The notes: generated by a model from the sequence alone, not told the origin. Positions 20,004 to 64,000 are shown, numbered from the stretch's first letter. The stretch is 64,000 nt of DNA from a virus (IMGVR_UViG_3300044557_000107:1-64000), one strand, 5' to 3'. Translations and numbers: made by a program.

Positions 20004-20240
20004 TTATCCTGCTACAGTCGTAGTAGTCGTGGTTGGAGCTACTGTAGTTGTAGTAGTTGTGGTATCTGTAAAGTCTGGTACAACTACTTTGTTGCTTTCC
20101 TTTGTTCCATCGTAATTCAAGTGTGTTAGAGTGTATCCTGTATAGGTGACTCCACTTTCTACAGGGATAGCTAACGGTGAGGCACCAGTTTGAACTAATG
20201 CACCCAGCTCATTGTATAAATTAAACTTTGCTTCTGCCAT
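20004..20240 (-). CDS. small virion decoration/tail-type (FN3-like) protein with C-terminal poly-Thr tag
   Basis: ESNKVVVPDFT resembles the ESxKVDVPxFxT tail-decoration motif; ends DTTTTTTTVAPTTTTTTVAG. Confidence 0.7.
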   Translation of the reverse strand: MAEAKFNLYNELGALVQTGASPLAIPVESGVTYTGYTLTHLNYDGTKESNKVVVPDFTDTTTTTTTVAPTTTTTTVAG

Positions 20241-20297
20241 GATATATCATAGTCCTTTCTGAAATCTGATTTCAAGTTTAATTTAGCTATTATATTA

Positions 20298-20969
20298 TCA
20301 CAAAAGTAATCCAAACAAGCCGTTAACAAGAATACTCAGAAGCATTAATCCCATATTTCTTAGCAAAGTCTTCTTAAAGTGAACTTCGCTTATTTTAGAA
20401 GAAACTAAAGCTACCACAGTAACGCTAGTTATGGCCCCAATTAAACCTGCATAAAATACATAATAGCTAGGCATTAATAGTAAGAATACTAAAGGGATTA
20501 TTCCAGAACAAAAAGCAAATATCAAAGAATAGATTGTAGCTTGAACAGGACTAACTGAGTGACCTTTTTCAATATTATACTTATTTTCTAGTATCTCAGT
20601 AACTGGATCCCGAAGCGCTTTAACTGCTCTTTCCGCAGTTTCTTGTGAAATCCCCTTTTGCATATACTGCTGGGTAAGTTCTTTACAGGAACTTTCAGGG
20701 TCTTTACGCATTCTATCATATTCCTTAGTCGTAATTTCCTGCTCTAATTGCTTTTGAGATGTTACGGAGTTATATTCCCCAGCAGACATAGAAATAGCAC
20801 AGGCGACCAAATTAGATATTCCAGCTACAAGAATAACATATTTATTACTTGAAGCAATGCCTAAACTAAATATTATTCCTACAGTTGTTAAAATTCCGTC
20901 ACTAGAACCCAGAACACCGGCTCTTAGTGAATTGACTCTTTGCTCTAAAGTATCACTCATATTATGCAC
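20298..20969 (-). CDS. VIT1/CCC1 family Fe/Mn transporter
   Basis: LRAGVLGSSDGI...ISMSAGEY motif and transmembrane helices. Confidence 0.9.
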   Translation of the reverse strand: MHNMSDTLEQRVNSLRAGVLGSSDGILTTVGIIFSLGIASSNKYVILVAGISNLVACAISMSAGEYNSVTSQKQLEQEITTKEYDRMRKDPESSCKELTQQYMQKGISQETAERAVKALRDPVTEILENKYNIEKGHSVSPVQATIYSLIFAFCSGIIPLVFLLLMPSYYVFYAGLIGAITSVTVVALVSSKISEVHFKKTLLRNMGLMLLSILVNGLFGLLL

Positions 20970-21637
20970 CCCACTAAATAAGTAATTCCCATAGATATTG
21001 TCCCTATAATTAAATTACGGATAATATTAGATATTACAGAACTCTTTGTTACTTTAGCCGCGATTGTTCCAATAATAAGAAGAGCTATCACAACACTTAT
21101 TCCAGTAAAGAGAAGCTTAAACTTTATAGGCGCAATCATGACAAAGATAAGGGGTATGAGACTACCTAGAGGAAAAGCTATAAAAGAAGCAATACCCGCA
21201 AAATATGGGTTAGTTATGTTATTAATATCAAAACCATACTTTTCTTGAACTATAGTTCTTAGAGGGTCCTCTTGTAGCATTTCTTGAGCAAAGTTAAGGG
21301 ATAATTCTTCTGGTAGTCCCTTCTTTTGATATAAAGATGCAATAAAATGTAATGACTTTCCCTGATTAAGGTTGCTTCGTTCATTAATAATAACTTTTTG
21401 TTGAGAGTCCTTTTCAGCACTTACTGAAGCAACTTCCCCTAAAGCCATACTGATCATACCCGCAATAATACCAGCAACAATAGACTTAAATAGAACTCCG
21501 GAATTGCTTGTTGTTGCTAAAACACCTAAAGCTAATCCTGAAATAGATATAAGTCCATCATTGAAAGACATCAGAAAAGATCTTAAAATATTAGATTCAT
21601 CACTTAAACTAAGTTTCAATTTACCTTCTTCTTTCAT
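20957..21637 (-). CDS. VIT1/CCC1 family Fe/Mn transporter
   Basis: LRSFLMSFNDGL...ISMALGE...NP...ASFIAFPLGSLIPL. Confidence 0.9.
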   Translation of the reverse strand: MKEEGKLKLSLSDESNILRSFLMSFNDGLISISGLALGVLATTSNSGVLFKSIVAGIIAGMISMALGEVASVSAEKDSQQKVIINERSNLNQGKSLHFIASLYQKKGLPEELSLNFAQEMLQEDPLRTIVQEKYGFDINNITNPYFAGIASFIAFPLGSLIPLIFVMIAPIKFKLLFTGISVVIALLIIGTIAAKVTKSSVISNIIRNLIIGTISMGITYLVGCII

Positions 21638-21744
21638 CCTGTTTTCAAGTACAAGTTTCTGTATTTTACTCCAAAGTTAATTTAGTTCTCTATTTGTATG
21701 TAAACTATCTAAATTAAATTTGGCGGATAGAAAGGATATGCGAA

Positions 21745-22704
21745 ATGTTAAAATACTATAAGATACAAAACACAAATAACCTAGTAGAAACAACTAGTGA
21801 TGACTATGACTGGGCAAACGCAGTTTCTCCAAATAACCTAGAAATAAGTCAATTACGCCCGAGAACTCACCTAGACTCTGAGTCCCTAAACCAGATCCTG
21901 AGCAATTCCCAAAGTAACCATATTGATGGGCTATCTAAAGACCCGAATCCCGTTACTATGATTTTACAGTACCCCACTAAGATTCTATCTAATTTTGGAA
22001 ACTTTTATGAATACACTACAAGACCTATTGTTTTAGTTATTACCAACGATAATGACAAAGATGATCTAATCACTATGTCCAAAGAACTTCCAGACTTTAT
22101 TAGTCACATTATATCCAACACTGAGCACCTAAAGCTTAATATCGGAGCTAAAGAAGATATCATTTTATCCGCAATCTATTATCTTGCCCGAGAATTTGAA
22201 AATGTCTTATTAAATATTGAGGATACCACTATTCGATTAGAAAAGTCCTTAAATAAAGCTACTGATAACGATACACTGTATGAAATTATGAGTCTACAAA
22301 AGACCCTCAATTCTTTCACAAGTGCTTTGCGTAGAAACAATGAAATATGCAATCAGATTATTCAGGATGAAGACTACTTCAACGACCCTAAATATAATGA
22401 TCTAAGTAAGAAAGCTAGTCTAGCACTAGATGATACCTTTGAAAAAGATCAGTATCTCAAACAAGTGCTCGAAGACTATTCTAGTATGATTCAAGCGGTA
22501 GTCCAAAATAATCAAAGTACTTCAATTAATAAGTTAACTGTTTGGTCTATTGTACTCGCTTGTGTATCTGCGGTAGCTGGAATCCTTGGAATGAACTATG
22601 TTATTCCTTTCGCCAGTGACCACTATATGTTCTACTTTGTACTTTTAGGAATCATTGGTGTCGGTACATTCATCTGGTATAAGCTAAAAAACACGTTAGG
22701 TTAA
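21745..22704 (+). CDS. corA: CorA-family Mg2+/Co2+/Mn2+ transporter
   Basis: Large soluble domain, INKLT, GILGMN signature and two C-terminal TM helices. Confidence 0.88.
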   Translation: MLKYYKIQNTNNLVETTSDDYDWANAVSPNNLEISQLRPRTHLDSESLNQILSNSQSNHIDGLSKDPNPVTMILQYPTKILSNFGNFYEYTTRPIVLVITNDNDKDDLITMSKELPDFISHIISNTEHLKLNIGAKEDIILSAIYYLAREFENVLLNIEDTTIRLEKSLNKATDNDTLYEIMSLQKTLNSFTSALRRNNEICNQIIQDEDYFNDPKYNDLSKKASLALDDTFEKDQYLKQVLEDYSSMIQAVVQNNQSTSINKLTVWSIVLACVSAVAGILGMNYVIPFASDHYMFYFVLLGIIGVGTFIWYKLKNTLG

Positions 22705-22731
22705 AAAAGGAGACCCTAGGGTCTCCTTTTT
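22704..22731. terminator. bidirectional intrinsic terminator
   Basis: AAAAAGGAGACCCTAGGGTCTCCTTTTT between the convergent corA and glycosyltransferase genes. Confidence 0.85.
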
Positions 22732-22732
22732 G

Positions 22733-23740
22733 TTATGCTGAAAGAATATTATTAATATCCACAATAGTTTTATAAGTATAATATCCAGATTTAACACGAG
22801 CTTGATATTCTTTAACTTTAGCAAAGCTACTTACAGAAACCATATCCAGATCATTTAAGGACGCTACGGTTGTACCAATTCCATGCTTCTTAGCATATTC
22901 TCCGACATTAGTTCCCGCTTTAGCAACTATGAATAGCTTTGAGGCTAAATATAAACTAGCTTTATGCGACCAATTATACTCTTGATACTTTTGGTACCTA
23001 CTATCCGGAGTTCCGTCCCATACCAGTCCCATAGAATACCGGTCAATAATACTAGGAAGAACCTGTGATGGAAACTTTCCTTTGTAAAACAGATACGGAT
23101 TATCCTGTATAACCACTCTAATTTTGTCATCAGGGTCTCCATAGACGTCTAAGAAGGTATTTATATCCTTTAGGAATTCAGACTTCTTAGCGGTCAAATT
23201 ACCAGCGTATACCATGCTTGCAGTAACTTCAGGAAAACCGCTTGTATTATCATTTTCAGATACGTCATAGTCAAAGACCTCTTGAACTACATATTTGATA
23301 TTAGAATTATTCAAATGATCTTTAATCCAATTTTTAATCTTCACTGAGCTAACTACTAGTACATCGGCTTTCTCAAGCCACTGCAAGTCGTCCTGTGCGT
23401 TGCTCACAAGTCCTCTTAAGTAATCTATATCGTGTACCCATAAAACAACCTTACAGTTCTTATCTTTAATACTCTCGAAGATACGACTGTTTGTTTCAAA
23501 GCTATTGTACGTAGGAACCTGCAAGATAACTACAGAATTTAGTTCAATACTACTCAGTGTATTCTCCATACTATCTAGACTTTGACCAAACATTGGAAGA
23601 ACCACCGGCACATACCCCTGCGGACGACAAAAGTTTCCAATGTCCTTTCGGGGCTTAACTGTTGCATCGTAAGACCATGCGGAATTACTAGGGACGGCAA
23701 TATACTTGCTAGGCATTTTTAGCTTCCTCTGATGTGGCAC
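22733..23740 (-). CDS. GT-B glycosyltransferase, Gtf3/beta-1,6-galactofuranosyltransferase-like
   Basis: LQVPTY, VHDIDYLR, VFDY, YAGNL..KSEFL, GLVWDG and YNWSHKASLYLAS motifs. Confidence 0.85.
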   Translation of the reverse strand: MPHQRKLKMPSKYIAVPSNSAWSYDATVKPRKDIGNFCRPQGYVPVVLPMFGQSLDSMENTLSSIELNSVVILQVPTYNSFETNSRIFESIKDKNCKVVLWVHDIDYLRGLVSNAQDDLQWLEKADVLVVSSVKIKNWIKDHLNNSNIKYVVQEVFDYDVSENDNTSGFPEVTASMVYAGNLTAKKSEFLKDINTFLDVYGDPDDKIRVVIQDNPYLFYKGKFPSQVLPSIIDRYSMGLVWDGTPDSRYQKYQEYNWSHKASLYLASKLFIVAKAGTNVGEYAKKHGIGTTVASLNDLDMVSVSSFAKVKEYQARVKSGYYTYKTIVDINNILSA

Positions 23741-24008
23741 TTGCAGGTACGCTAGAAGTTGTTGTTGTAGTAGCTTCCGCCTCTAAACTAGACTCTGCTT
23801 GTTCTAGTTCATCTAAATATTCCGAAAAGTCTTTCAAGAAACTATCTTTACTCCTAATAATACCCTTAATAGAACTTGTGGTAATTCCAATATATCTATT
23901 AGAATTTTCTAGAGATAAATTAGTATTAAACCTAGCAAGACTCTCTGTACTATCTGTAGCCATACTAGTTGCGGTAACTGTAACTGTTTTATTTGTGTCT
24001 AATCCCAT
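23709..24008 (-). CDS. small protein with Thr/Ser-rich tail between the two glycosyltransferases
   Basis: Likely start MGLDTNK; C-terminal ATTTTTSSVPASATSEE. Confidence 0.65.
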   Translation of the reverse strand: MGLDTNKTVTVTATSMATDSTESLARFNTNLSLENSNRYIGITTSSIKGIIRSKDSFLKDFSEYLDELEQAESSLEAEATTTTTSSVPASATSEEAKNA

Positions 24009-24016
24009 TTTTATTC

Positions 24017-24958
24017 CTACTTTCTTACTTTTCCAATTGCCTTTGCGTATTCTGACGAGCATAACTCTGGATTTACCCATGAAAGATCCTTGTATAAAGG
24101 ACTTCTAGCTATATACTCACCCTTGTAGAATGCTTTGTCTCTTACTCGCATTTCTTCAGTAATTCCAGCATTATGCAGGATCTTGGTTTCTTGATACCGA
24201 CTAATATTATCCGTAGACCAAGAAAACTCAAGTTCTTTACTTTTCTCAGTAGTAATCCCATACTTATTGCATAAATATAACTCTGCATACATTTCAGCAC
24301 ACCATACTTGAATAAAGTAATCTTGCGTACCTCCATTAGATTTCAAGATATAGTCATATTGATGTTGCACTTTGTTCATCCATGAGTACAACGTGTAAGA
24401 CTTCTGATAAACATCTTCCCAGTATTCTTTAGTTGGCTTACTAATAATCCATTGAGCACCAATTGAGCGCCCTTTAAATGCCATCATAGATTCTGCATCA
24501 CTAAGTCCTAGAAAAGAACTTATTCGTTGAAGTATATCTTTTCCTTTAGATCCTAAATAATCAGGACCTACATAGGACTCTACATCTGCTCCGTACCAGT
24601 GATCAGAGGATAATAATGGAAACTGATTAAAATCTAAAGGTTCTCTATAAATAATATCAGAGTCCTGATAGACAAAGTCTTCATTACAATACTCGGGATT
24701 TTCTTCTAGAAAAACTGACCATAAATAGGGGCGTATACTGGGAATATACTGAGAAGCTAGTGCTGGACGTTTGTCATGATACTTAAAACAGTTAACGGAG
24801 TACTTAGAAGCGATCTTATCAGGTATGTGCTTTCCTCGATCTGTAAATAATAAAATAACCTTACTAAGGTCTATGCCTAGTTCACCCATATTAGTTAAAA
24901 CAACTTCTAGTTGCCATTCGTAATAAGGATCATCAGGCTGTGCCATTAAGTAGTACAA
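24017..24958 (-). CDS. GT-A glycosyltransferase resembling peptidyl O-glycosyltransferases (HPAT/SGT1-like)
   Basis: YYEWQ, YIPSIRP, DxD (YQDSD) and WCAEMY match the YxxWQ/NKP/DxD/WxxEMY pattern of plant HPAT/SGT1 enzymes. Confidence 0.7.
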   Translation of the reverse strand: MYYLMAQPDDPYYEWQLEVVLTNMGELGIDLSKVILLFTDRGKHIPDKIASKYSVNCFKYHDKRPALASQYIPSIRPYLWSVFLEENPEYCNEDFVYQDSDIIYREPLDFNQFPLLSSDHWYGADVESYVGPDYLGSKGKDILQRISSFLGLSDAESMMAFKGRSIGAQWIISKPTKEYWEDVYQKSYTLYSWMNKVQHQYDYILKSNGGTQDYFIQVWCAEMYAELYLCNKYGITTEKSKELEFSWSTDNISRYQETKILHNAGITEEMRVRDKAFYKGEYIARSPLYKDLSWVNPELCSSEYAKAIGKVRK

Positions 24959-25021
24959 TATAGGTACCTTCTTTATTTTTACTTGTACTTTTATTGTATC
25001 ACAGAGGCACTTTTAAAATAT

Positions 25022-25610
25022 CTAATTAGACAACCCAATAGCACCCCATAGTTCTGCATAGGTGTGGTCTTCCATGATTTTCTTTACAGCATCTTTATTG
25101 GCGCTGATAAATTGACTCGCCTGCTTAATATCGGGAATATCATCCTTAGATAGCAAACTATTAGGATCCCCATAAATCTTAATCCAAGGCTCCATGGATA
25201 AGATGTACTTCAATTGTTTATCTGTTGCTTCTTTCAATATCATTTACCCCCTAAATTATTAACTGGACAAGACTAGGATTCTGAAAAACATGACGAAGCT
25301 TATTCTTAATCTTATCTGGTTCCTGCTTAAAGGCTTCTTGACTAACTAGTACCGGCATAATCCGGTGACCATCTTTCGGTGTATCTGTAGAAAATCCAAT
25401 TACTAAGACTCGCTTTTGGAGTTCCTTTTCCGCTTCTTCAGTAGAATCTAAGTCTAAACGTTGTACAAGATCTTGTACGTTTTTTCGTGGATGCACTTTA
25501 TCCATGGCATCATCAAACATGTTTAGCATAATGTCATAATCCGCATTTTCTTTCACCCGGACAATCTGATTATTATGCAAGAACATTAAATCAAACTCGT
25601 CATTCTTCAA
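25022..25610 (-). other. two hypothetical genes (25022-25243, 25251-25610)
   Basis: ORFs with RBSs. Confidence 0.65.
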
Positions 25611-25629
25611 TATAATTCCTTCTTCCTTA

Positions 25630-25932
25630 CTAATTTTTATAGTACTTAACTTCTCTTTGCAAATTGCTTGGCAGGGGAATAACTGTAATCAGCATAGGGA
25701 TACCTTCCGAGTATCCGTAAATGAATACATAACTATTATAAACCACCACGGAATGTGGACGTTCTTCCTTAAGCGCAATTGACGCAAGGTACTTTCGAAG
25801 ATTACCTTTAGCATCTGACTGCTTGATCCCTTTATCTAAAGCTCGACTAAATTGACGTAACGTAGCTTTCTTTGGAATACCCATGCGGCTCTTAATTCGT
25901 TTAGTCGCGTGTCTTGAAATAGTAACTTCCAT
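25630..25932 (-). CDS. basic protein with RelE-like/DUF4258-type signature
   Basis: ISRHATKRIKSRMG...LITV; own promoter TTGACA-N16-TATAAT (25985-25958). Confidence 0.55.
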   Translation of the reverse strand: MEVTISRHATKRIKSRMGIPKKATLRQFSRALDKGIKQSDAKGNLRKYLASIALKEERPHSVVVYNSYVFIYGYSEGIPMLITVIPLPSNLQREVKYYKN

Positions 25933-25997
25933 GACTACGCCTCCTTCCTATGAGTATATTATAGCACAGAAGGAAAACTTGTCAACGTTCTATAGCA

Positions 25998-26223
25998 TAA
26001 AAATAGACCCTTTCAGGCCTATTCCTAATACACATGATTTTTATCGTTGCCAGCTCAACTATCTAGAATATGTCCAGCCTTGAAAATTACAAGTTTTTCT
26101 GATGCTTGCCATCCGCAGGCCCATACGTCCCGGATTTATGTCTGGTTAATTATAAGCAGTCATGCCTGCACAAATATGTATGCCCCAGCATTTGAGCACT
26201 TTTAGTAGGCTTCTGGGGCTTAG
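25998..26223 (-). ncRNA. candidate structured RNA 3 downstream of the endolysin
   Basis: TGCTATAAT extended -10 at 26238-26230, GAAA-loop terminator 26002-26023, several GC-rich stems, no ORF. Confidence 0.55.
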
Positions 26224-26245
26224 ATTCTTATTATAGCATATGTTA

Positions 26246-27550
26246 CTACTGAATGCTACCCAATAGCACCCGTGTATTTGCATTTCTAACAGCAATGTAG
26301 TGGTGGTATCCACCTTTAATCTTGTAACTTACGTAAATGTAGTTACCACGTTTTACGAATCCGTCGTAAGAAATTTGCTGCCCTTTGTAGTATCTAGCAC
26401 CAGTTGGCTGTGAACCTGGATAAGCGAATACTCGCAAGGTTTGCCCAGCAGTGAAGACTCCGTTTTGACGTGTAATTGTATATCCACCGTCTTTAAAGGT
26501 TCCTGATACTTTAGTGGTAGCACTTGAAGAGCTTGTTGACGTAGTTACTGGTGTACCTACACTAAGAATTTCAACATCAGACTTATTTGCCCAACTAAGT
26601 ATTCCTGCTAAAAGAACTTTGTTTCCGGACACTTGGATAACTTTATATGAATTACCCTTTACCCAGCTAGGAATAGTTACATTATTACTCCACTTGGTAG
26701 CAGAATAGTTGACCTTGACTGTATCGCCAACTTTAATATCAGACTTTGCAGTATTATTAGCTTGCTGACCTGCTTCAATAGCTGGAGTAGTCGTATCTGT
26801 CTTTACTGCGGTGCCGCCTTGATCACTGGTTGTAGTACCATTATACCCATTATCAGTAATCCCAGTTAGATCTACATCTCCGTCAACCCCAGAATTATTA
26901 GTCCCGAAGTTATCGGCAAACTGCCAAATAGCTACGTTGTCAAAACTTGGAAAATAATTAAAGTCTGGTGCAGTCTGTCGACTAGTAGTTTTGTAGCTGG
27001 CAATCCAAACCTTGTTAGACCCAAATTTTGCCGCAATTTCTGCATCATTTATATAAGACTTGAAATAAGGCTTATAACTGTAGATTACAGGAGTATATCC
27101 AGCATCTTTGATCATTTGCATGGCCAAAATTATGTTAGCTGTGTTAGCTTCCTTATCACTAGAAGCTCCTTCTTCGTAATCTACAGCAACAATTGAACCT
27201 TTAGGAGTTTGGACTTTTGCAAGTATTGAAGGCAAAACTGCCTTAGTTCTTGTCTGATCGGCCCCATTAGCCATGTAAAAATAAGTGTGTGATCGACGCC
27301 CTTGAGCAATTGTATATTGGACTTGTGTTGCATAGGTACTTTGATAGATTACCTTAGAATTATAAATACTACCAATACCAACAATGTTAAACTTAGTATT
27401 TGGGCTTCCTAGGTTGCCTAAAGTCCCTTGAGGATAGCTATTATCCGCCCCTAAGTCACCTTTTGCTGCGTTTGCTACAGTCGGTATAAAAAACAAACTA
27501 AAGATAAACACAGAAAGACTTAGTACATATTTTTTAAACCTATTAGTCAA
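26246..27550 (-). CDS. endolysin: signal peptide + GH25 muramidase + two SH3b-like cell-wall-binding domains
   Basis: N-terminal signal peptide (..TVANA), DYE catalytic motif, WIASY, IWQF, VDGD; C-terminal SH3_5-like YDG..GNYIYVSY. Confidence 0.9.
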   Translation of the reverse strand: MTNRFKKYVLSLSVFIFSLFFIPTVANAAKGDLGADNSYPQGTLGNLGSPNTKFNIVGIGSIYNSKVIYQSTYATQVQYTIAQGRRSHTYFYMANGADQTRTKAVLPSILAKVQTPKGSIVAVDYEEGASSDKEANTANIILAMQMIKDAGYTPVIYSYKPYFKSYINDAEIAAKFGSNKVWIASYKTTSRQTAPDFNYFPSFDNVAIWQFADNFGTNNSGVDGDVDLTGITDNGYNGTTTSDQGGTAVKTDTTTPAIEAGQQANNTAKSDIKVGDTVKVNYSATKWSNNVTIPSWVKGNSYKVIQVSGNKVLLAGILSWANKSDVEILSVGTPVTTSTSSSSATTKVSGTFKDGGYTITRQNGVFTAGQTLRVFAYPGSQPTGARYYKGQQISYDGFVKRGNYIYVSYKIKGGYHHYIAVRNANTRVLLGSIQ

Positions 27551-27641
27551 GTTTTTGGCTCCTTTCTTTGAATGGTGTTCAAAAATAATATAGAGCCAAA
27601 TAACTAAAAAAAGAACCCCTTAAGGATTCTTTTAATCTTGA

Positions 27642-28208
27642 CTAGGCTTGAGAAGCCGGTGCCGCACTTTCAGTAGCAACTTCACTAGATACTTGAGAAG
27701 CACTTGTTGTTTCTTCTGGTGTACTTGAGGACTCCTTAAGCACGTTTTTAACAATATCTTTGACTTGCGCTTCAGTAAGTGTTCCCGTAGTTATACTATG
27801 ACTTTCTGTAGTAGTTGTGGTTGTAGTAGGAACCGCAGTAGTGGTCGTAGTTGTAGTGGGATCTGCTTGAGTATAAGCATCCAAGGTTCCATCAGTAGTC
27901 AAGGTAGCATAGGCTGTTTCAACTGCGTTTTTAATAGTGTTAGCTTCAACCTTAGTAAATCCTAAGTTCTTTAAAGAATCTGAAACAAGTTGCACTGCTT
28001 TAGACTTTTTAACTTCCCCGTCAATATACGAGGTGACCCCTAACTTTTGTAAAGCTACTACGGCATCCTTAGCTAATGTAGGTAGAACATCTACAAGCGT
28101 TGAGGCAGTCTTGCTAGATTTAATAAGCTTAGCTAAGTATGGTGTAACAACCCCAATAATGGCTACGGCTACTGTAACAACGATCTCTGAAATATTTTGA
28201 ACATCCAT
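27642..28208 (-). CDS. holin, LL-H family, with Thr-rich C-terminal extension
   Basis: Single N-terminal TM, AVVALQK..GEVKKSKAV..IKNAVETAY; adjacent to the endolysin. Confidence 0.8.
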   Translation of the reverse strand: MDVQNISEIVVTVAVAIIGVVTPYLAKLIKSSKTASTLVDVLPTLAKDAVVALQKLGVTSYIDGEVKKSKAVQLVSDSLKNLGFTKVEANTIKNAVETAYATLTTDGTLDAYTQADPTTTTTTTAVPTTTTTTTESHSITTGTLTEAQVKDIVKNVLKESSSTPEETTSASQVSSEVATESAAPASQA

Positions 28209-28235
28209 AAATTATCACTCACTTTCAAAGTTAAT

Positions 28236-29297: not shown

Positions 29298-29307
29298 TAT
29301 TTTCCCC

Positions 29308-30114
29308 TTATAGTGTGACTGGTGCTGAATCGGTATCTAGCGACTGTTCATCCGAAGCAACAATGGCAAAATACCCATCTTGGTTATCTAAAGTGTACAA
29401 AATAACTCCAATAGGTGCTTCAGGAGCATCTGTAGACGTCCCTGAATCATCGCTATTAATAGCAAAATCGGAATACCAGGACTCCGGGATACTTGAATAA
29501 TACCCAGGTATATTAACGTTAATATCAATTAAGTCCCCTACGTCTGTATTATATCTAAAATCTACAGATTGGTAAGAACCATCAGATAATTGTATTAGAT
29601 TCTTGCCATCAAGATCTTTAGAATCTCTAGCATATCCTAATAAGGTTGTCGTAGTTGTAGTTCCCGGAAACAAAGTTGTTGTCGTAGTCGTTACCGCAGA
29701 TTCCGGTAAGAAATAAACCCCGGTGATACTACTTGTATTTCCTTTGTTATCCTTAGTATATTTTAATATGGTACCTACGTTAAGATACTTTAAAGTAGGG
29801 TTAACTAGCGCTTGTGTATCAGTATATTCATAGCAGGGGTACGTAGATAAGGCGTCGATACTTATAGCATAGTCTTGCCATGCAGTAGGGCCTGAAGAAT
29901 CATAATACATAGCAATTTCTGTCCTTGGATAGGTATCTTCTGTAAGCTTAACATAGACGTCCCCGCCTAATGACTGCTCGTATTTGGGAATGACAATAGT
30001 ATATCCACCAATTAATTTGTTAAAAATATCACTTAGTCCCAATCGACGAGTTCCCATATCTTGCAAACTATCTGGACTCAAAACGTCATAATTGGCTAAA
30101 CTATAAGCTGTCAC
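29308..30114 (-). CDS. probable virion protein with internal poly-Thr insert
   Basis: VTTTTTTLFPGTTTTTTLLG; acidic, structural-type composition. Confidence 0.65.
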   Translation of the reverse strand: MTAYSLANYDVLSPDSLQDMGTRRLGLSDIFNKLIGGYTIVIPKYEQSLGGDVYVKLTEDTYPRTEIAMYYDSSGPTAWQDYAISIDALSTYPCYEYTDTQALVNPTLKYLNVGTILKYTKDNKGNTSSITGVYFLPESAVTTTTTTLFPGTTTTTTLLGYARDSKDLDGKNLIQLSDGSYQSVDFRYNTDVGDLIDINVNIPGYYSSIPESWYSDFAINSDDSGTSTDAPEAPIGVILYTLDNQDGYFAIVASDEQSLDTDSAPVTL

Positions 30115-30865: not shown

Positions 30866-30873
30866 AAAATCAC

Positions 30874-32960: not shown

Positions 32961-33474
32961 GATGATCCCTTAATTCTTCCAGCTTCATTGTAGGCTTTCC
33001 CCACCGAATGTTGTCTTCATTAACAAATACTCCAGTAGGTTCCCCTTTAATAAACCGATTGCGGATTACTTTATCAGGAGTATACTCTTTAAATCCTATG
33101 CAAGGCTTACCTGTAAAAGTATCTGTTCCTCGTTCTTGATAAGATATATACAGCGGTGGCTTAACTATTCTTTGACGTTGCCCCGTTTTCTTGTCGTCTT
33201 GATCGATTAAGCCGGCGGCAAGATTAGATAGGATAGTATGCCCAGAAAAGTGGGGAGCTTGTTTCTTAACCTCAATTGTTTTGTAGTCTTTAACCGGTAA
33301 TTTGGATCCTGATGTATTTGGCTTACTAGCATACACTAGGTAAGTCACTAACCCATCTGGGTATTCTACTTTGTCAATTATATACTGAGGCTCTTTATAC
33401 GACTTATCTCCTATGATATAAAGAACCCCTTCAGTGTATATGTTAACATCTATTTTATTAGATCTATCTTCCAT
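32944..33474 (-). CDS. conserved phage hypothetical protein
   Basis: 176-aa ORF. Confidence 0.7.
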   Translation of the reverse strand: MEDRSNKIDVNIYTEGVLYIIGDKSYKEPQYIIDKVEYPDGLVTYLVYASKPNTSGSKLPVKDYKTIEVKKQAPHFSGHTILSNLAAGLIDQDDKKTGQRQRIVKPPLYISYQERGTDTFTGKPCIGFKEYTPDKVIRNRFIKGEPTGVFVNEDNIRWGKPTMKLEELRDHLAQSL

Positions 33475-36124: not shown

Positions 36125-36218
36125 CTAAACATCTCTATTAATTATAATAGACTATTTTAATTAATAAGTCAAGCAAAAAAAGAACCCCATAAATTGGAGT
36201 TCTTTAGAGTATTTCTTA

Positions 36219-36853
36219 TTATCCTGCTACAGTCGTAGTAGTAGTAGTTGGAGCTACAGTCGTAGTGGTAGTCGTCGGCGCCACAGTCGTTGTGGACGTA
36301 GTAGGCGCTACGGTTGTAGTCGTGGTTGTCGGACTAACTGTGGTAGTCGTCGTTAGGGGTTTACCGTGGTTGTGGTAGTCGTGGTTGGTGCTACTGTAGT
36401 CGTAGTAGTTGTGGTATCCTTATCATTAGTAATACTATCTACTAATTCTGGCGCGTCATTAACGAAGACTTCATAATCACCGTAGTTAAAGGCCCCATCT
36501 ACATACGCTAAGAACCCTTTAACAATTTCAAGTTCCTCTGTTGAAGTACTTGCAATAGTCTTTTTAGCAATCCCAGGTTGATCAATAGGAAACTTTATTT
36601 CGTTATCGACATAGTATAAATGGTCAGATCCATCAGTATACACTACAGGAAGTGCATCGCTAACTAGTCCTCCAGCGGACTCACTAACTTTCATTGGAAA
36701 TACTGAATATCCTACATCTTTTTCAACCTTATAAATGTGATTTCCTGCGTAAATATTGTTCATCCCGTCGCTATCGGAAACAACAAAGAAATATTTATTT
36801 TCAATATCTGGTTTAGCTTGATTTACTAAACTTTTAATTGTAGTTGTTGCCAT
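36219..36853 (-). CDS. virion (tail-associated) protein with poly-Thr tail; 36353-36853 plus a probable -1 frameshift extension to 36219
   Basis: Position after the sigma gene and YTDG motif as in Twort-like virion proteins; A-AAC-CCC-TAA at the stop, and the -1 frame adds 45 aa of T5-6V(A/S)P repeats. Confidence 0.7.
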
Positions 36854-49133: not shown

Positions 49134-49141
49134 ATAAATAA

Positions 49142-51787: not shown

Positions 51788-51792
51788 CTGCT

Positions 51793-52845: not shown

Positions 52846-52904
52846 TTTTAAGCCCCCTTCAGTTAACTAAAATAAGGATACCACTAAGGTATCCTTAAAG
52901 CAAA

Positions 52905-57387: not shown

Positions 57388-57465
57388 AATTACACCTTCT
57401 AAATTTATTTTTTAAAATCTTTGCTAATTGACTTGTTATTCTGTTCTACTATGATATAATGATAG

Positions 57466-58124
57466 TACATATTTAAAAGAATAGCAAAAGAGTAATACGT
57501 TTTTGGCATACGTTACAATGTTGGGTCGCACCCACTAGCAAAAGGACTGGTTCATCTCTCGAGTCGCTCTCTGAATTAACCCATGAGAATATAGTAGTAT
57601 TCTTGCAGTCAACAACGGAATACCAATCCATCAGGATGAAAAACCCTGTAAAAGAGCGGGGGTAGCCTGTAGAGACTACCATGGAAACCATGAATTTAGT
57701 TATCATTCCCCAGATTGTAGTCTAGTGGGTTACACGAGTTACCACTTAAATAACAACTCACTACAACTGGTTGCGTGGGCATGGAGAGCATAATGAATGC
57801 CGTAATTCTTGACGATGTAAGCTAATTAATTGCTATTGTTGCAGTTCTTTAGTTAATAATTATTACATCTTAAATTACTTACGGGTGTTATCTGAGATAC
57901 TATCTTAAGAGACATATTAGCCTGCACTAGGTTAAGTGTCTTTTGAGATACTACAAGCACTAAAATAAAGGTTCTTAAGGTGATTATAGTCCATAAAATA
58001 TCCTAATAGTTCCTTTAAGGTACTAAAGTATCTAATATTGACAATTATAGTTTGCTTAAAAGTACATAATATTTATTCATAGAAATGAATATAAAAGAGG
58101 ACTCTAATATAGAAGTCCTCTTTT
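57466..58124 (+). ncRNA. candidate large structured RNA (~500-650 nt)
   Basis: Plus-strand promoter 57428-57460, terminator 58093-58124, many stems including long-range and pseudoknot pairings; G-U pairs favour the plus strand. Confidence 0.55.
58093..58124. terminator. bidirectional intrinsic terminator
   Basis: AAAAGAGGACT-N10-AGTCCTCTTTT. Confidence 0.85.
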
Positions 58125-58127
58125 ACT

Positions 58128-58331
58128 TTAATTGATATTATTAAGTTGGTCCTTAAGGTCTTGCTTAAGTTTCTTAACTTCTTCTAGTTCTTTATGAAGT
58201 TCTTGAGACTCTTTAATAATAGTATGCTTAGCTTTCCAAAGATCTTGGTCATGCTTTGTTGGAACATGGATAAAGGCAATTGCTCTTCCATGCTTATTAT
58301 ACTGTTTCTCCTGATATCCCATACATACCAC
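58128..58331 (-). CDS. small coiled-coil protein at the end of the tail operon
   Basis: Follows the adsorption protein, as in Twort-like phages. Confidence 0.65.
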   Translation of the reverse strand: MVCMGYQEKQYNKHGRAIAFIHVPTKHDQDLWKAKHTIIKESQELHKELEEVKKLKQDLKDQLNNIN

Positions 58332-58344
58332 ACTCCGTGTTACT

Positions 58345-61300
58345 TTATTCCTGTGTCATGATGCATTGAAGTGCTTTTACCCGCGGACGTTCATAACTGT
58401 TAGATGTGGATAAGTCTAAACGTATCTTGAATTGCTTACTCCAGTTATCGGTATTATCACCAGTTGCGGTGGTTTGAGTATAAGATACACCTGTCCAATC
58501 TCCTTGAGTAGTCGTTACAGGGTTCGCTGTAAATGCCGTCCATGTAGTACCACCATCCGTACTGTATTTTGGAACAACATTAGCAGTTGAAGGAGTTATC
58601 TGACCATACGTTACCTTTAGAGTATTATATGGACTTGCTGTCATATCAACATTGAGACCAATGTAGGAACCCGAAAGTCCATGCAAGAAAGCACCAAGGG
58701 ATAGATCTTCAGTACTCAGTAGTGGTGAAGAATACATAGAGGCATCAAAGGTTGCTTTTAATTGGAGTTGCTTAATTAGTCCATTTGCTTGAACTAACGT
58801 ATAATTTGATAATGCTATCCAAGGCAACGTTGTAATATCAGTATTAGATGCTGTACTAGAATAGATTGCGCGGTAGTACCAAGTAGCACCCGTATTATTT
58901 GGTGTTAAGTAAGTACTTAACAAGAGAAGACTATCTAAGTTAACGGTCATAGGCTTAAATAGAATAGTGGCTGATGAGTTATATTGAGCCGCGTAGATAT
59001 TAAACTTCAAATCAGAAGTTTGTTGCTCAGACCATGTATAGGCGTTAGAAGATTCAAACATCATTCCTGGAGTATAAGCATTCTGATTAAGTGTCCCTAC
59101 GTTGCCAATTAATGTTTCTCCTTGTTTAGCATAGTAAACGGAGTAATCATCAGAATTTGCTAATATTACGATACAATATTGTGTACCAGAGTCTAATCGG
59201 ATCATATCGTCAAAAGATACTTTAGTTTCTACAGAAGCATCTGATGATACACTAACTTGACTAGATGACAGAATTGCAGTTCCATAGATGGTTTCATTAG
59301 GAAATCCTGAAGTCATTCCACGTACTTGAACTTTAACACTGTCTGTGTTAGACTTAGAAGCGAAATAGAGTCCTAAGGACGTCATGTTGTAATACGTAGT
59401 AGGAACAAATGACTGAGCTAGAGGATCTGTAAAATGTGCGGTTACATAAGTCTTAAAGATAATATCTTCGACAGTCTTTTTAATCCCTTGAGCTTCATAA
59501 GGAGCCTCAGCAGAATCTGCATCATTGGTGAAGACAACTTCACGGGTACCACAAGGAACATTAGCTGGGATAACAAAAGTTCCTTGATATGATCCATCAG
59601 CGGCTACTTGAACTTGACCAGAACTATTAGCGGCGTTATAACCAGAACCGGCGGTAATTGGACAAGTTATTCCATAAAAAGTGATATAGAATCCCGTTGC
59701 ATTAGGAGTTAATCCAGTAGCTGAAAATGATAATGTACGAGAGCGAATATACTGTTCCATGGATTCGGTAGTCTGAGTACCACCAGCACTTAAAACAGTT
59801 CCTTGAAGATCTTGAATACCAAGGTTTGTTCCTTCTGTAAATTCAGTCCAGTTACCATTAACATAACTACTTGAATAAGAACTATTTGCAGTATTCCAAG
59901 TAGCATTTTGGACATACCATTCGGCATCTGATGAGTTTATATATCCCCCATGTTGCCACCAGCGATCAAGATAAATTGTCTTATACTGGTCTTCAGTAAC
60001 GGTAACATTGTCAGTATCAATCCAGTTATCAGAACTTGGTGTTAATACTAGCTTACCTTCTCGGGCTTGGTCATATGGATTGACATTTATTGTACTAGTA
60101 GCTTGAGTTTGCTTAATTACTGCGGTTTCCGTAAAGGGTGCCGTAATTAAAGTACTCGTTGTATCTAAGTTGGACTGAGTTAAGTCAAGTTCCGGAGTAA
60201 CATCGACTTGTGCAGTATACGGAAGAGTTAATTCTGCGTCATCGAAGCTCATAGCCGCATCCCAAATAGGATTAGTAGTATCTGCTTTGTCTAGGCTAAT
60301 AAAGCCATCAGAAAATACGCCTCGAAGACTTGTTGGATCTGTTGCATTATAAGATGCTTTATCAAGCATATTAATAGCTTCATTATACTCAATATTGTCT
60401 ACTCGGGTCTTTAGCTTTCCTAAGTCACTCATAGTTAAATTAGAGGTTACATAGACGTTAGAAGAACTATTAGATGAATTAGGGTATAATTCTACATACC
60501 CAATTTGAAGTACCGTACTATCAACTAAGTTAGGTGCCGCAACAGTATCTGCATTAGCTGGAGTCCCTGTATGAACAGTTAAGTTACCATCTTTATCAAT
60601 TGTGATAAGATCTTTACGGTATAAGTAGTATTCGTAAGTAGTCTGAATTAAGCTATTACTAATTAAGACACCACCTGTACTATCACCGGATCCTACAATT
60701 CCCATACCGGTAAAGTCAATATAAGTAACAGCCAAATCACCGGTTCCAGTAACGACCTTGTAGTCTGTATTTAAGACTAATGTTTTGTTGTATACATACG
60801 TAACCCGATAAGAAGTACCCGCAGTAGGATAACTTCCAGAAGCCTTCCAAGTAATACTAGTGTGATCGTTAGTGTAGTCGGTTCCAGCAGTATAAGTAAC
60901 ACCACTGGTACCTTCCGTAAATACTTTTTCGACGGTCAAGACATTACTATCGGGGAAAGTATCAGTTCCCCCAACAGTAGCTCCCCGAGTCATCGTTACA
61001 GTTTTACGAACCTGAGCTACAACGGTATCTACAGATTTAACTGCGGGATAGCTTAAATTGTACTTATAGGTTCCTGTAGTGTAGTAATTTCCTTCAGACT
61101 GTTCGGTAGCTGTAGTTAATGATTTATCTACAGCAATACGTGTAGGGTATTTCTTCTTTACTGGGTATCCTAACACGTAGGCATTTCCTGAATCTACGAT
61201 AATATCCACTTTATTTGTATTAGATGCGTTTTGTGCGGTGCTTAATCCAAATCCATTAGTACCTGAGCGGAAACTACCATTAGTATCATAACTCGTATTA

Positions 61301-61848
61301 GCAATCAGTTCTTGGACCTTACTAAGTTCCGTACTAATATTATTATTAACTAAAACACCGTCTTTAAACGTATAAATAGTTGCCGCGGTAGAATCATTTG
61401 CGACAAGACTAACAGTCTCTTGAAGTCGATCAGCCCCTAGAGACTGGTAAGCATCGGTACCAACTGCGGGATTCTTTAAACTAGGATCATCGTCTGCTGT
61501 AATGATGCTTTGAATTAATTTAACGCCTAGAGTTTCTGTTCCAGCTCCGGTGATTGACACCGTTTGTTCTGGAAAGTGACGACGCATGCCTCCAAGATAA
61601 ACGTCGCCTTCAGATACGGTAATGCTATTTCCAGATTGGGTATATCCCATTCCAGACTGTTTATCACCATCCGACATAACTGAATCTCCAACACCTTTAA
61701 TAGCATAATGGAGTTCAGATTGCATTTCATTTAATTCAGATGCTGATAGTTGTCGGTCAACGTTAAATAAAACCATGGTTCGATTATTACTAGAGTCATA
61801 ACGATCATAGTAAGGACTAACAGTTAAGTCAATGGTTGTGTCTGCCAA
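58345..61848 (-). CDS. adsorption-associated baseplate/tail protein (DUF4815-like)
   Basis: SPYYDRYD...VLFN.DR.L.ASELNEMQS, FSDGF, NVNPY, DPLAQSF. Confidence 0.88.
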   Translation of the reverse strand: MADTTIDLTVSPYYDRYDSSNNRTMVLFNVDRQLSASELNEMQSELHYAIKGVGDSVMSDGDKQSGMGYTQSGNSITVSEGDVYLGGMRRHFPEQTVSITGAGTETLGVKLIQSIITADDDPSLKNPAVGTDAYQSLGADRLQETVSLVANDSTAATIYTFKDGVLVNNNISTELSKVQELIANTSYDTNGSFRSGTNGFGLSTAQNASNTNKVDIIVDSGNAYVLGYPVKKKYPTRIAVDKSLTTATEQSEGNYYTTGTYKYNLSYPAVKSVDTVVAQVRKTVTMTRGATVGGTDTFPDSNVLTVEKVFTEGTSGVTYTAGTDYTNDHTSITWKASGSYPTAGTSYRVTYVYNKTLVLNTDYKVVTGTGDLAVTYIDFTGMGIVGSGDSTGGVLISNSLIQTTYEYYLYRKDLITIDKDGNLTVHTGTPANADTVAAPNLVDSTVLQIGYVELYPNSSNSSSNVYVTSNLTMSDLGKLKTRVDNIEYNEAINMLDKASYNATDPTSLRGVFSDGFISLDKADTTNPIWDAAMSFDDAELTLPYTAQVDVTPELDLTQSNLDTTSTLITAPFTETAVIKQTQATSTINVNPYDQAREGKLVLTPSSDNWIDTDNVTVTEDQYKTIYLDRWWQHGGYINSSDAEWYVQNATWNTANSSYSSSYVNGNWTEFTEGTNLGIQDLQGTVLSAGGTQTTESMEQYIRSRTLSFSATGLTPNATGFYITFYGITCPITAGSGYNAANSSGQVQVAADGSYQGTFVIPANVPCGTREVVFTNDADSAEAPYEAQGIKKTVEDIIFKTYVTAHFTDPLAQSFVPTTYYNMTSLGLYFASKSNTDSVKVQVRGMTSGFPNETIYGTAILSSSQVSVSSDASVETKVSFDDMIRLDSGTQYCIVILANSDDYSVYYAKQGETLIGNVGTLNQNAYTPGMMFESSNAYTWSEQQTSDLKFNIYAAQYNSSATILFKPMTVNLDSLLLLSTYLTPNNTGATWYYRAIYSSTASNTDITTLPWIALSNYTLVQANGLIKQLQLKATFDASMYSSPLLSTEDLSLGAFLHGLSGSYIGLNVDMTASPYNTLKVTYGQITPSTANVVPKYSTDGGTTWTAFTANPVTTTQGDWTGVSYTQTTATGDNTDNWSKQFKIRLDLSTSNSYERPRVKALQCIMTQE

Positions 61849-61874
61849 TTTATTAATACCTCTTTCTTTTTTAT

Positions 61875-62125
61875 AAATAAAAGTTGAGAAAACACGTTAC
61901 TTTAGTTGCGTGATGAATCAATTAGTGATATACTAAGAACTATAAAGAACTTAGGTAACCTTAGATGCGAAAACCAAGTATCTTAATAGGTTGCTTAAGT
62001 ATATTTAAGTAAACCAATATGGGTCGGGACGACCCTTAGTAAATAGCTGTAACCTCTAGGTACTTTAGGGTACCCAAGTATGCAGTGTTCCTAGAAGCTC
62101 GCTACTAAAGTAACGAGTGGTTCAC
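61875..62125 (+). mobile_element. 251-bp non-autonomous IS200/IS605 derivative D (omegaRNA cassette)
   Basis: TTTAT target 61870-61874, same architecture as C, ends TTCAC; opposite orientation to the flanking genes. Confidence 0.85.
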
Positions 62126-62135
62126 TTCCTTCTTT

Positions 62136-62726
62136 CTAGTTCGCTAATAGAATTTCAATGGGAACAATCGCGCTTAAAGTAACTTGAGTATTACTTTGAG
62201 GATAAATTGGGGATATATTAGAGTATTCTATTAGTGTTCCTGTATTAGATATTTCTGTAGGCTTTAAAATAGTTTTTTGTGTACTAGCAGTAACTCCCAA
62301 GCAAATCCCATATTGTCTAAAACCATTAGTAATTGAAATATCACTATTAGTAAATGATGTTACGAAATAGACACAATCAGGTACATTAGTTGCACTAAGA
62401 TTACTTTCATCCATTATTTCGTAGGTAGTACCTTGAAATTCTATTGTACTTACAGGTACTGAAGTTGTCGTTGTAGTAGTGGTAGTAGAGTTACTTGTTG
62501 TAGTCGTGGTAGTAGTCGGAATAGTATATTTTTTTAAGGGGACTGCTTTAGTTGCTTGAACGTAATACTGAATATCTTCAAGATTGCTTGTAGTTACACT
62601 TTCTGTATCCGGGGTAGCTTCATTGATCCAAGCACTTGTTTTACCCAATGAAAAGTATATTTGAGTTACGTTACTAATCAAATATTTATATATTAAATTT
62701 TTTAAGTTATTTGTTGGGGTTGCCAT
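62136..62726 (-). CDS. baseplate protein with poly-Thr insert
   Basis: YFSLGKTSAW..E..P, FRQYG; insert PTTTTTTTSNSTTTTTTTTSVP. Confidence 0.8.
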   Translation of the reverse strand: MATPTNNLKNLIYKYLISNVTQIYFSLGKTSAWINEATPDTESVTTSNLEDIQYYVQATKAVPLKKYTIPTTTTTTTSNSTTTTTTTTSVPVSTIEFQGTTYEIMDESNLSATNVPDCVYFVTSFTNSDISITNGFRQYGICLGVTASTQKTILKPTEISNTGTLIEYSNISPIYPQSNTQVTLSAIVPIEILLAN

Positions 62727-62744
62727 AATTTTCCTTTCCGAGTA

Positions 62745-64000
62745 CTATGGTGCTGTCGTTGTTGTAGTCGTAGTAGCTAAGGGTACTAATATTTCTTCAC
62801 TTTCACTATTAATATAGGCGGTTGTATCATTATATTTATCAAATATTCCTTGTAAATATAAGTAAATATTATTAAAAATAGTATTTATTAATGAATTTTC
62901 TGGATCACTACATGATAACAGAGAGTACCCTGATGTGCTTACATAATCCTGCAAATTGCTTATTTTAGAACCTGAGGTTAAGCTATCAAAAGTACTTGTA
63001 TTAAAATTATATAGCATAATCGGAAGACTAGGCGAAATATTTGCATTTAAAGTTACTTCTAAATTGCTTATAATTGACTTCCATGCAGAATCATAATTTA
63101 ATGTAGGATTATCTTTTATGTAAAGACTTATGAAGCTCCCAAAACGATTATAAAAGATATCTTTAAAAGCAATAGATACACTTAAATTTTTAAGCACATC
63201 TGCTGGATTAGGTGTCCATGGAGTGGCTGTGGCACCTTTCTCTAGTTTAAGATGACTAATAGTAGCAGTACCTGTACCACTGAGTTGAATATATCCAAAA
63301 CCTTGATTTACATTTGTTACTACTGTAGGTACTCTGAAGAAAGCAGACATTCTACCGGATCCTGAATCACTATTGTAGTTTATAGGGTACACCCAAGGTC
63401 CATGATATGCATTATCTGATGGAGTACTAAATCTTACTTCCCATCCTAATCTATTATTACCACTGCCTACTGTGAAATCAACATATTCATAATCATAAGA
63501 GATGGTTACTAATTGTCCTTCTAATGATTGAAATAATGCTAGTAATCCATCTTGATTCTCATTACACAGATATCCTTGGGTATTGCTTCCTACAACACTA
63601 GCTTGACCTGTTCCAGTCAGTAAGTTATTTCCAACTGTATCACTACTATTATCTTTACCATCGAAATTAAGATCTTTTGATTGGATATTGATGGGGTTAA
63701 AATAGGATTCTGATGATGGGCTGAGTGATATTAAGTTTTCATTCGTTAGATCATATGATACATAGGTAAATTCTGCTGGATTAGGGCACCAATCAGTTGC
63801 TACACTACCCTTTTCTAGCTTTTCTTCTTTCCAATAAACAAGTATGTCTTTGCTTTGTGCAGAAAATCCTAGTGGAGTTAAGTTAATATATCTTACTTCT
63901 GCTGGAATTGTAAAAGTAACTTTAGATACCCCACCAGTATTAGCTAATACAATGTTCCCTTGACCAATGATGTCATACCAATTCTTGTTTTCATCATATG
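62745..64000 (-). CDS. 3' part of a large baseplate/tail protein with carbohydrate-binding-type repeats and C-terminal poly-Thr tag (5' end beyond window)
   Basis: Two KLEKG..AT.W.PNPA repeats (~63.2 kb and ~63.8 kb); ends LATTTTTTTAP. Confidence 0.75.
   Translation of the reverse strand, partial: YDENKNWYDIIGQGNIVLANTGGVSKVTFTIPAEVRYINLTPLGFSAQSKDILVYWKEEKLEKGSVATDWCPNPAEFTYVSYDLTNENLISLSPSSESYFNPINIQSKDLNFDGKDNSSDTVGNNLLTGTGQASVVGSNTQGYLCNENQDGLLALFQSLEGQLVTISYDYEYVDFTVGSGNNRLGWEVRFSTPSDNAYHGPWVYPINYNSDSGSGRMSAFFRVPTVVTNVNQGFGYIQLSGTGTATISHLKLEKGATATPWTPNPADVLKNLSVSIAFKDIFYNRFGSFISLYIKDNPTLNYDSAWKSIISNLEVTLNANISPSLPIMLYNFNTSTFDSLTSGSKISNLQDYVSTSGYSLLSCSDPENSLINTIFNNIYLYLQGIFDKYNDTTAYINSESEEILVPLATTTTTTTAP

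Follow-up and report, generated by a model that had tools for sequence, protein, structure and literature searches.

A putative phage-encoded system for the O-glycosylation of threonine-tagged proteins in a Herelleviridae-like myovirus

To our knowledge, the glycosylation of phage virions has so far been shown only for phages of mycobacteria. Freeman et al. 2023 (Cell Host Microbe 31:1216) reportedly described virion O-glycosylation in the mycobacteriophages Che8, Corndog and Myrna, in which phage enzymes are said to act on the C-terminal ends of capsid and tail-tube subunits. Passages in PMC12582341 (its reference 80) and PMC13313380 (its reference 34) cite Freeman et al. 2023 on mycobacteriophage virion glycosylation. 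Here we analyze a stretch of 64,000 nucleotides (nt) of viral DNA (IMGVR_UViG_3300044557_000107:1-64000, hereafter the window), which corresponds to the initial 64 kb of a complete virus record of 139,820 bp with direct terminal repeats, and which encodes two glycosyltransferases, GT1 and GT2, as well as several proteins carrying runs of threonine (Thr), hereafter Thr tags. Folds, conserved motifs and co-occurrence make it likely that these elements form a phage-encoded, tag-based system of protein O-glycosylation, in which GT1 would initiate on the Thr tags and GT2 would probably extend the glycan. The evidence is wholly computational and comparative, and from it we infer the chemistry, the sugar donor, the sequence of the steps and the biological role. 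The virus is a Herelleviridae-like myovirus, whose nearest catalogued relative is the Levilactobacillus brevis phage SAC12B (43.5% identity on a 1167-amino acid (aa) baseplate/adsorption protein); megablast of a 10-kb region against phage records gave no match at the DNA level. It is a large phage of lactic acid bacteria and belongs to a distant lineage.

By analogy, mycobacteriophage virion O-glycosylation appears to be the nearest established system, and the same logic may apply to the phages that carry GT1. Common to both are phage glycosyltransferases kept among structural genes and, in the GT1-positive siphophages, C-terminal extensions of capsid and tail-tube proteins. Thus, a glycosyltransferase travelling with extensions of virion proteins, as in the mycobacteriophage type, is also found in the GT1 phages. 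However, no Mycobacterium phage is present among the 77 phage records that tblastn identified with GT1, and we therefore take the enzyme family to be a different one. Moreover, the tags of the GT1 phages are near-homopolymeric Thr, and their hosts are Firmicutes and others. The present myovirus also differs in the proteins that bear the tags, namely fibres, baseplate, an immunoglobulin (Ig)-domain protein, holin and chaperone, instead of capsid or tail tube. In the literature, we found no report of poly-Thr tags paired with a glycosyltransferase in Firmicutes phages.

A preliminary description of the window had placed poly-Thr tracts with mixed codons in at least seven proteins, and all the sites that it named were recovered. 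A six-frame scan of the window revealed runs of five to eight Thr at positions 20016-20063, 23757-23771, 27807-27857, 29644-29691, 36365-36415, 62463-62516 and 62754-62774. The whole genome contains 18 tracts of at least five Thr, which are distributed over 11 reading frames and are located on the coding strand only. In the common layout of a tag, paired Thr runs flank a spacer of three to four residues that includes a proline (VAP, AVP, VSP, FPG). In a crude gene set, 14 Thr runs were observed, while 0.07 are expected under an independent-residue model, and 200 within-protein shuffles yielded a mean of 0.3 runs with a maximum of 3. No comparable runs of any other amino acid are present in the genome. 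The Thr codons ACT, ACA, ACG and ACC account for 38, 32, 16 and 15%, respectively, within the tracts and for 45, 30, 11 and 15% outside them; this mixed codon use, which is close to that of the genome, speaks against simple DNA slippage. A DNA pattern of five Thr codons matched 47 times on the coding strand and not once on the opposite strand. The Thr tags therefore occur well above chance and are specific to the phage genome.

The gene of GT1, the candidate initiating peptidyl-Thr O-glycosyltransferase, is located at positions 24017..24958 on the minus strand, as are the other open reading frames (ORFs) listed in the preliminary description. The ORF finder starts the gene at a TTG codon (24958); the ATG at 24946 is the likelier start because the corresponding record of the ESM Atlas begins at residue 5. 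GT1 matches phrog_4417, a PHROG family without assigned function (expectation value (E) 5e-87), and contains the motifs previously pointed out, with PYYEWQ at residues 11-16, DSD at 99-101 and WCAEMY at 219-224. In a comparison of 43 family sequences, no variation is seen at D101 and H262, and at least 90% of the members have D99; from the sequence pattern, D99/D101/H262 would constitute a DxD...His site for binding metal and nucleotide sugar. The sequence of GT1 gave no match in Pfam, NCBIfam or the Protein Data Bank (PDB), and the PDB search was also blank with the 43-sequence profile. The AlphaFold2 model of GT1 (predicted local distance difference test score (pLDDT) 95, predicted template modeling score (pTM) 0.92) nevertheless has clear structural neighbours. 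Among solved structures, the best are GT8/GT24-type retaining GT-A enzymes, with Z-scores of 14.6 for glycogenin, 14.1 for the UGGT catalytic domain, 13.9 for Skp1 galactosyltransferase, 13.6 for LgtC and 13.5 for GlyE. Overall, GT8-type structures score Z 13-15 (13.3-14.6 for glycogenin, LgtC, GlyE and 3tzt) with a template modeling (TM) score of ~0.45. In the ESM Atlas fold search, unannotated and mainly viral relatives of GT1 came first (TM ~0.9). The closest folds with a family annotation are those of a green-algal (Chlorophyta) cluster of which 99% is Pfam HPAT (TM 0.73 over 282 residues, root mean square deviation 4.0) and of a bacterial PqqD+HPAT cluster (TM 0.74), these being comparisons between predicted models on both sides. 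The matched Atlas clusters are 55-99% Pfam HPAT. An Atlas feature search also returned clusters with some HPAT members.

HPAT (PF23452, CAZy GT95) and SGT1 (GT96) are plant and algal peptidyl O-glycosyltransferases, which start glycosylation at hydroxy amino acids of extended, proline-rich peptides. HPAT enzymes transfer arabinofuranose to peptidyl hydroxyproline; the tags of the present phage contain Thr and Pro. Judged by comparison of models, GT1 has the fold of the HPAT catalytic domain, and HPAT clusters are its closest family-annotated structural neighbours. The preliminary description had likened the motifs of GT1 to those of HPAT and SGT1; the likeness is upheld by shape, but not by sequence, as the Pfam PF23452 profile did not match GT1 itself. 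Within the GT1 family, the profile matched two of the 43 members, with a best E of 0.039, which is below the curated threshold. A six-frame search of the genome with the profile was negative as well, and is uninformative because the control genomes were also blank. Besides having a sequence similarity below the Pfam threshold, GT1 differs from HPAT and SGT1 in that Thr, and neither hydroxyproline nor Ser, is its likely acceptor, and in that it is predicted to be a soluble, cytoplasmic enzyme and not a Golgi membrane protein. Neither GT1 nor GT2 has, as read from the sequence, an N-terminal hydrophobic stretch resembling a signal peptide or membrane segment. The likeness to GT8 enzymes such as glycogenin and LgtC consists of the GT-A fold, the DxD and a downstream C-terminal His, all of which are present in GT1. 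Glycogenin demonstrates that a GT-A fold is able to glycosylate a protein side chain directly. In contrast to GT8 members, GT1 has no match to the GT8 Pfam family (PF01501), the search of the PDB with the family profile retrieved no GT8 chain, and the TM-score to GT8 structures is only ~0.45.

The evidence that most directly connects GT1 with the Thr tags is their co-occurrence, which the preliminary description had put forward as a check and which was borne out. GT1 relatives are encoded by at least 595 IMG/VR loci; at 50% identity, they fall into 993 clusters, of which 599 have E < 1e-30, and they are mostly viral. By tblastn, GT1 was detected in 77 of 50,697 phage records, with hosts including Clostridium, Enterococcus, Lactococcus, Staphylococcus and Chryseobacterium, and also in large uncultured phages. 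For the tag survey, we used the best 80 of the at least 595 IMG/VR loci, together with twelve loci found by other routes. Thr or Ser/Thr runs are present on the GT1 strand in all of these best 80 loci. When grouped at 60% identity, 19 of 20 GT1 clusters have runs of at least five Thr, mostly within 200 nt of GT1. The twentieth cluster is that of SAC12B, in which TTV(A/K)P repeats form the end of both the holin and SAC12B_0175, the gene of the latter lying immediately upstream of GT1. Thus, Thr-rich tags are found beside the GT1 gene in 20 of 20 lineages sampled. The bearers of the tags in siphophages belong to three unrelated major-head PHROG families and three tail-tube families, and further include a portal protein and the phrog_14018 protein. 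Over all GT1 phages, fibres are among the tagged proteins as well. The tagged proteins are mutually non-homologous, the tag is usually C-terminal, and GT1 sits within late structural operons.

As controls, we chose GT1-negative siphophages from the same tail-tube family, which have homologous tail-tube and capsid proteins: Javan47 and Javan505 (both of Streptococcus), SPP1, Bassarid and phiJL-1. Their 200 kb do not contain any run of at least five Thr. The capsid proteins of Javan47 and the GT1-positive phage phiFL1A share a C-terminal block, after which the Javan47 protein soon stops, whereas that of phiFL1A adds three Thr runs. In the GT1-negative Herelleviridae List-36, EFDG1, Sb1, SPO1L4 and Goe25 (709 kb), the five-Thr-codon pattern matched 0, 0, 2 (one site), 0 and 0 times, respectively. 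Tags are accordingly reported absent from all ten GT1-negative control phages, five siphophages and five Herelleviridae. Many members of the GT1 family are 500-780 aa long, and GT1 is commonly fused to PqqD, to radical SAM plus SPASM, to a GT2-, GT6- or GT25-family domain and to a methyltransferase (P0130, P0061, P0148, P0151, P0242, P0143). PqqD and SPASM domains are characteristic of enzymes by which peptides are recognized and modified. All three fused forms that were inspected adjoin mucin-like poly-Thr proteins.

GT2 (22733..23740, minus strand) is, by sequence and fold, a GT-B enzyme of the Gtf3/GtfC type and a candidate glycan-extending enzyme. Searches of the PDB with phmmer returned 4w6q, 9hu9, 3qkw and 3rhz, with E from 2e-11 to 2.7e-10 over residues 58-328, and Foldseek placed the GT2 model closest to 4w6q, 3rhz and 9hu9 (TM 0.76-0.79, E ~1e-17). 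The fold matches to Gtf3/GtfC are seven to eight orders of magnitude better in E than those to other GT-B enzymes, and the likeness to the Gtf3 type noted in the preliminary description was thus confirmed at both levels. GT2 itself had no match in a local Pfam search; a homologue of 96% identity bears Pfam Gtf3_N and Gtf3_C (PF26334, PF26337). In the present phage, GT1, a tagged small ORF and GT2 constitute one operon. This small ORF (23709..24008, minus strand) encodes a 99-aa protein with a five-Thr run followed by a Ser/Pro/Ala-rich C-terminal tail, overlaps the start of GT2 by 32 nt, and has no family match in Pfam, PHROG or NCBIfam. The GT1-GT2 distance is 3-7 kb in the Lactobacillus phage LP65 and in the 40%-identical relatives L206 and L207. 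A small ORF with a Thr tail lies directly upstream of GT2 in three lineages, i.e. the present phage, L206/L207 and LP65 (gp043), with no detectable homology between the small ORFs of the different lineages. GT2 is present in 19 complete phage records (13 phages, at least three lineages), and all 19 are among the 77 GT1 records, so that no GT2-bearing record lacked GT1. When GT2, the small ORF and the 78-aa tagged protein described below were compared by BLASTP with the ORFs of 198 loci (80 GT1 loci and 118 poly-Thr loci), no match was obtained.

The two enzymes together resemble the pathway that glycosylates the serine-rich repeat proteins (SRRPs) of streptococci and lactobacilli, in which GtfA/B is followed by Gtf3/GtfC, which adds a hexose to protein-bound O-linked N-acetylglucosamine, and then by GT8 enzymes such as GlyE. 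GT2 is a Gtf3/GtfC homologue and GT1 has a GlyE-like fold (Z 13.5), and the proposed likeness extends to a cytoplasmic, stepwise building of glycans on repeats rich in hydroxy amino acids. In contrast to the SRRP pathway, the repeats of the present phage contain Thr, not Ser, the substrates would be phage proteins, and no accessory Sec export is involved. No GtfA/B-like primer was seen adjoining the glycosyltransferase genes, the genome not having been searched exhaustively for one.

In the mechanism that we propose, GT1, acting as a soluble late GT-A enzyme, would take a nucleotide sugar from the host and place the first sugar on Thr hydroxyls. The acceptor would be the tag, in which Thr runs flank the proline-containing spacer, exposed on tails or linkers, and modification would take place in the cytoplasm, either ahead of assembly or in its course. 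GT2 would then probably attach a further sugar to this one, in the manner of its homologues acting on serine-rich adhesins. In the present myovirus, fibres, baseplate and decoration proteins would thereby acquire a mucin-like brush of glycans, while the many siphophages with GT1 alone would carry the brush on the C-termini of capsid and tail-tube proteins. Its biological role may be shielding, stability or adhesion.

Several observations weigh against this mechanism. By fold, initiating and extending enzymes are indistinguishable, and sugar extension is what most GT8 enzymes do. The holin and the tail assembly chaperone are both tagged and are not virion-surface proteins, while the major capsid and sheath proteins of the present myovirus carry no tag. 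Moreover, a single cluster of 58 members dominates the best 80 GT1 loci, and the effective sample is therefore about 20 lineages. Of the 118 viral loci sampled for a seven-Thr run, 112 have no GT1 in the fetched stretch and six do; the Thr tag is thus not exclusive to GT1. This last observation would favor an explanation in which the tracts are mere flexible, protease-resistant linkers and the glycosyltransferases modify host cell-wall polymers, for instance to block superinfection, enzyme and tag being unrelated. The commonness of Thr-rich linkers in viral and bacterial proteins and the well-known prophage glycosyltransferases that modify teichoic acids both count for it as well. We nevertheless regard this explanation as highly improbable, since tags accompany GT1 in 20 of 20 lineages, are missing from all ten controls, are borne by non-homologous proteins and usually lie within 200 nt of GT1. 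In addition, GT1 is located inside late structural operons, neither enzyme has a signal-peptide- or membrane-like N-terminal stretch, and the PqqD and SPASM fusions indicate peptide substrates. Another possibility is that a host system, e.g. a GtfA/GtfB-type O-N-acetylglucosamine (O-GlcNAc) transferase of lactobacilli, primes the Thr tags and that GT1 and GT2 merely extend. The nearest solved folds of GT1 include the sugar-extending GT8 enzymes GlyE and LgtC, and the solved relatives of GT2 act on GlcNAc previously placed by GtfA/B in the SRRP pathway, a dependence that counts in favor of host priming. However, GT1 follows the tags across very different hosts, in which a common host primer is unlikely, it is found fused to peptide-recognition domains, and it is nearer to the peptide-initiating HPAT (TM 0.73) than to GT8 (TM ~0.45); we therefore consider priming by the host to be quite improbable.

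The target of GT2 is less certain than that of GT1, and its probable role as an extender, inferred as it is, is the weakest link in the proposed mechanism. An arrangement in which GT1 glycosylates the tags, while GT2 acts elsewhere, on phage DNA, a nucleotide or a cell-wall polymer, and owes its adjacency to GT1 to a recent rearrangement without function, is rather unlikely. The GT2 homologue of SAC12B lies between a helicase/primase gene and a deoxynucleoside kinase gene, and that of the Enterococcus phage 9183 is located among nucleotide-metabolism genes, settings that are compatible with a nucleic-acid or other target. As judged by synteny with SAC12B, the present phage has no gene in this slot, SbcD coming immediately after the helicase gene. 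On the other hand, every complete GT2-positive record is also GT1-positive, a Thr-tailed small ORF is located directly upstream of GT2 in three lineages, and the nearest solved relatives of GT2 extend O-glycans on proteins. Furthermore, the complete genome contains no gene for a thymidylate-synthase-like hydroxymethylase, TET/JBP or a C5-methylase, and SAC12B has no thymidylate-synthase-like hydroxymethylase, so a DNA-sugar pathway would lack a visible source of the acceptor base. Because of the absence of these genes, DNA modification as the purpose of both enzymes is set aside here, and a paper on the anti-restriction functions of phage VPE25 describes no DNA glycosyltransferase. Taken together, the O-glycosylation of Thr tags by phage glycosyltransferases, as suggested in the preliminary description, is supported by the comparative tests; the suggestion of a glycan-coated virion fits less well with a tagged holin and chaperone, which are off the surface, and with an untagged capsid and sheath, and extension by GT2 is probable from its relatives.

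The tags on the holin and chaperone suggest that the modification extends past the virion surface. A wider view, which we put forward as a tentative and somewhat doubtful one, is that GT1 represents a very large, mainly viral, new family of peptidyl-threonine O-glycosyltransferases, distantly related to plant and algal HPAT, which reads a minimal, portable code of Thr runs and proline spacer that is used beyond virions (holin, chaperone), the tagged share being set by -1 ribosomal frameshifting shortly ahead of the stop codon.

If the proposed mechanism is correct, virion glycosylation is not a peculiarity of mycobacteriophages, but would be common in phages of Enterococcus, Staphylococcus, Lactococcus, lactobacilli and Clostridium, and in many uncultured phages. 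The GT1-positive phages include VPE25, 9183, SA2, 1706 and PLE3, which are either phages of Enterococcus or Staphylococcus, genera relevant to phage therapy, or pests of food fermentation. A glycan coat would be relevant to antibody recognition, stability, adsorption and mucus binding, and the combination of a short, genetically encoded tag and a soluble enzyme would be available for glyco-engineering in bacteria. In addition, phrog_4417, a large family without assigned function, gains a testable one, and the similarity to HPAT hints at an evolutionary connection with the enzymes by which plants glycosylate their cell-wall proteins.

The other tagged proteins of the window, labelled according to their PHROG annotation, are likewise encoded on the minus strand. 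The 78-aa phrog_14018 protein (20004..20240) ends in Thr runs of seven and six with VAP between them, and a relative of it is encoded directly upstream of GT1 in a siphophage locus (L035, E 6.5e-43). The holin, of the Holin_LLH family (27642..28208), has two seven-Thr runs in its C-terminal tail (DNA 27807-27857); judging from its sequence, in which an N-terminal membrane segment and a basic stretch precede the tail, the latter probably faces the cytoplasm. The holin of SAC12B is not homologous and bears repeats of the TTV-x-P type. Two virion structural proteins have internal runs: phrog_1104 (29308..30114), with two six-Thr runs (DNA 29644-29691), and phrog_1394 (62136..62726), with runs of seven and eight Thr (DNA 62463-62516). 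The Ig-domain protein (36353..36853), which is 31% identical to SAC12B_0175, ends in a pair of seven-Thr runs separated by VAP. The C-terminal part of a 767-aa tail fibre protein (62745..64000) carries seven Thr followed by Ala-Pro at its end, and its gene extends to genome position 65048. Three tagged frames are located outside the window, at genome positions 69466-69825, 69847-74589 and 83044-83571. A 1575-aa tail protein with a glycerophosphodiesterase domain, the tail assembly chaperone and a 120-aa protein whose function is not annotated are also tagged.

The Ig-domain gene ends with GTA-AAC-CCC-TAA (36353-36362), and the -1 frame continues from there to a double stop, encoding four Thr runs. 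This continuation (36222..36355, minus strand; runs at 36231-36353) is a candidate frameshift extension, and its tagged part does not have a start codon of its own. A similar arrangement is seen in Enterococcus phage 9183 (L204 11018-11125), in which the heptamer C-CCA-AAA lies two codons ahead of the stop of the major capsid gene and a Thr-rich tail of 30 residues is encoded in the -1 frame. Frameshifting may thus set the share of tagged subunits. A stretch of ~95 nt is nearly identical between the end of the 78-aa gene (19945-20045) and the end of the -1-frame extension (36170-36270); it comprises the last Thr run, VAG, the TAATAA double stop and a terminator hairpin, and looks like a duplicated cassette of tag plus terminator.

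The endolysin (26246-27550) consists of a GH25 domain and a C-terminal SH3_5 domain, with two Ser/Thr-rich linkers. The Ser/Thr/Ala-rich domains of lactobacillus autolysins are O-glycosylated and, by likeness to these, the endolysin linkers might also be substrates. In LP65 (L214 8225-9107), gp050 and gp051 end in Thr-rich repeats of the TETQTQ type and are encoded directly upstream of a divergent GT1 (gp049). The annotation of gp051 as a structural protein derives from 2-D gel electrophoresis and mass spectrometry; this status is not transferable to the Ig-domain protein, to which gp051 has no significant similarity (E 9).

Some of the genes surrounding the glycosyltransferases deserve mention. 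In phage 9183 (L205 2400-9800), the Gtf3-like gene is part of a cluster with genes for thymidylate kinase, thymidylate synthase, dUTPase, a HAD hydrolase, an NDP-sugar pyrophosphorylase-like protein, RNase HI and thymidine kinase, which is a candidate DNA-hypermodification cassette. TnpB/Cas12f-like genes are located near the Gtf3-like gene in the relatives L206 (12972-14462) and L207 (16020-17026). In the window, a tandem pair of genes for VIT1-family iron/manganese transporters (E 1e-39 and 7e-45) lies within 20298-22704 and is adjoined there by a divergent gene for a CorA-like magnesium transporter (E 4e-29). These transporter genes, which are unusual cargo for a phage, are situated between the glycosyltransferase operon and the gene of the 78-aa tagged protein.

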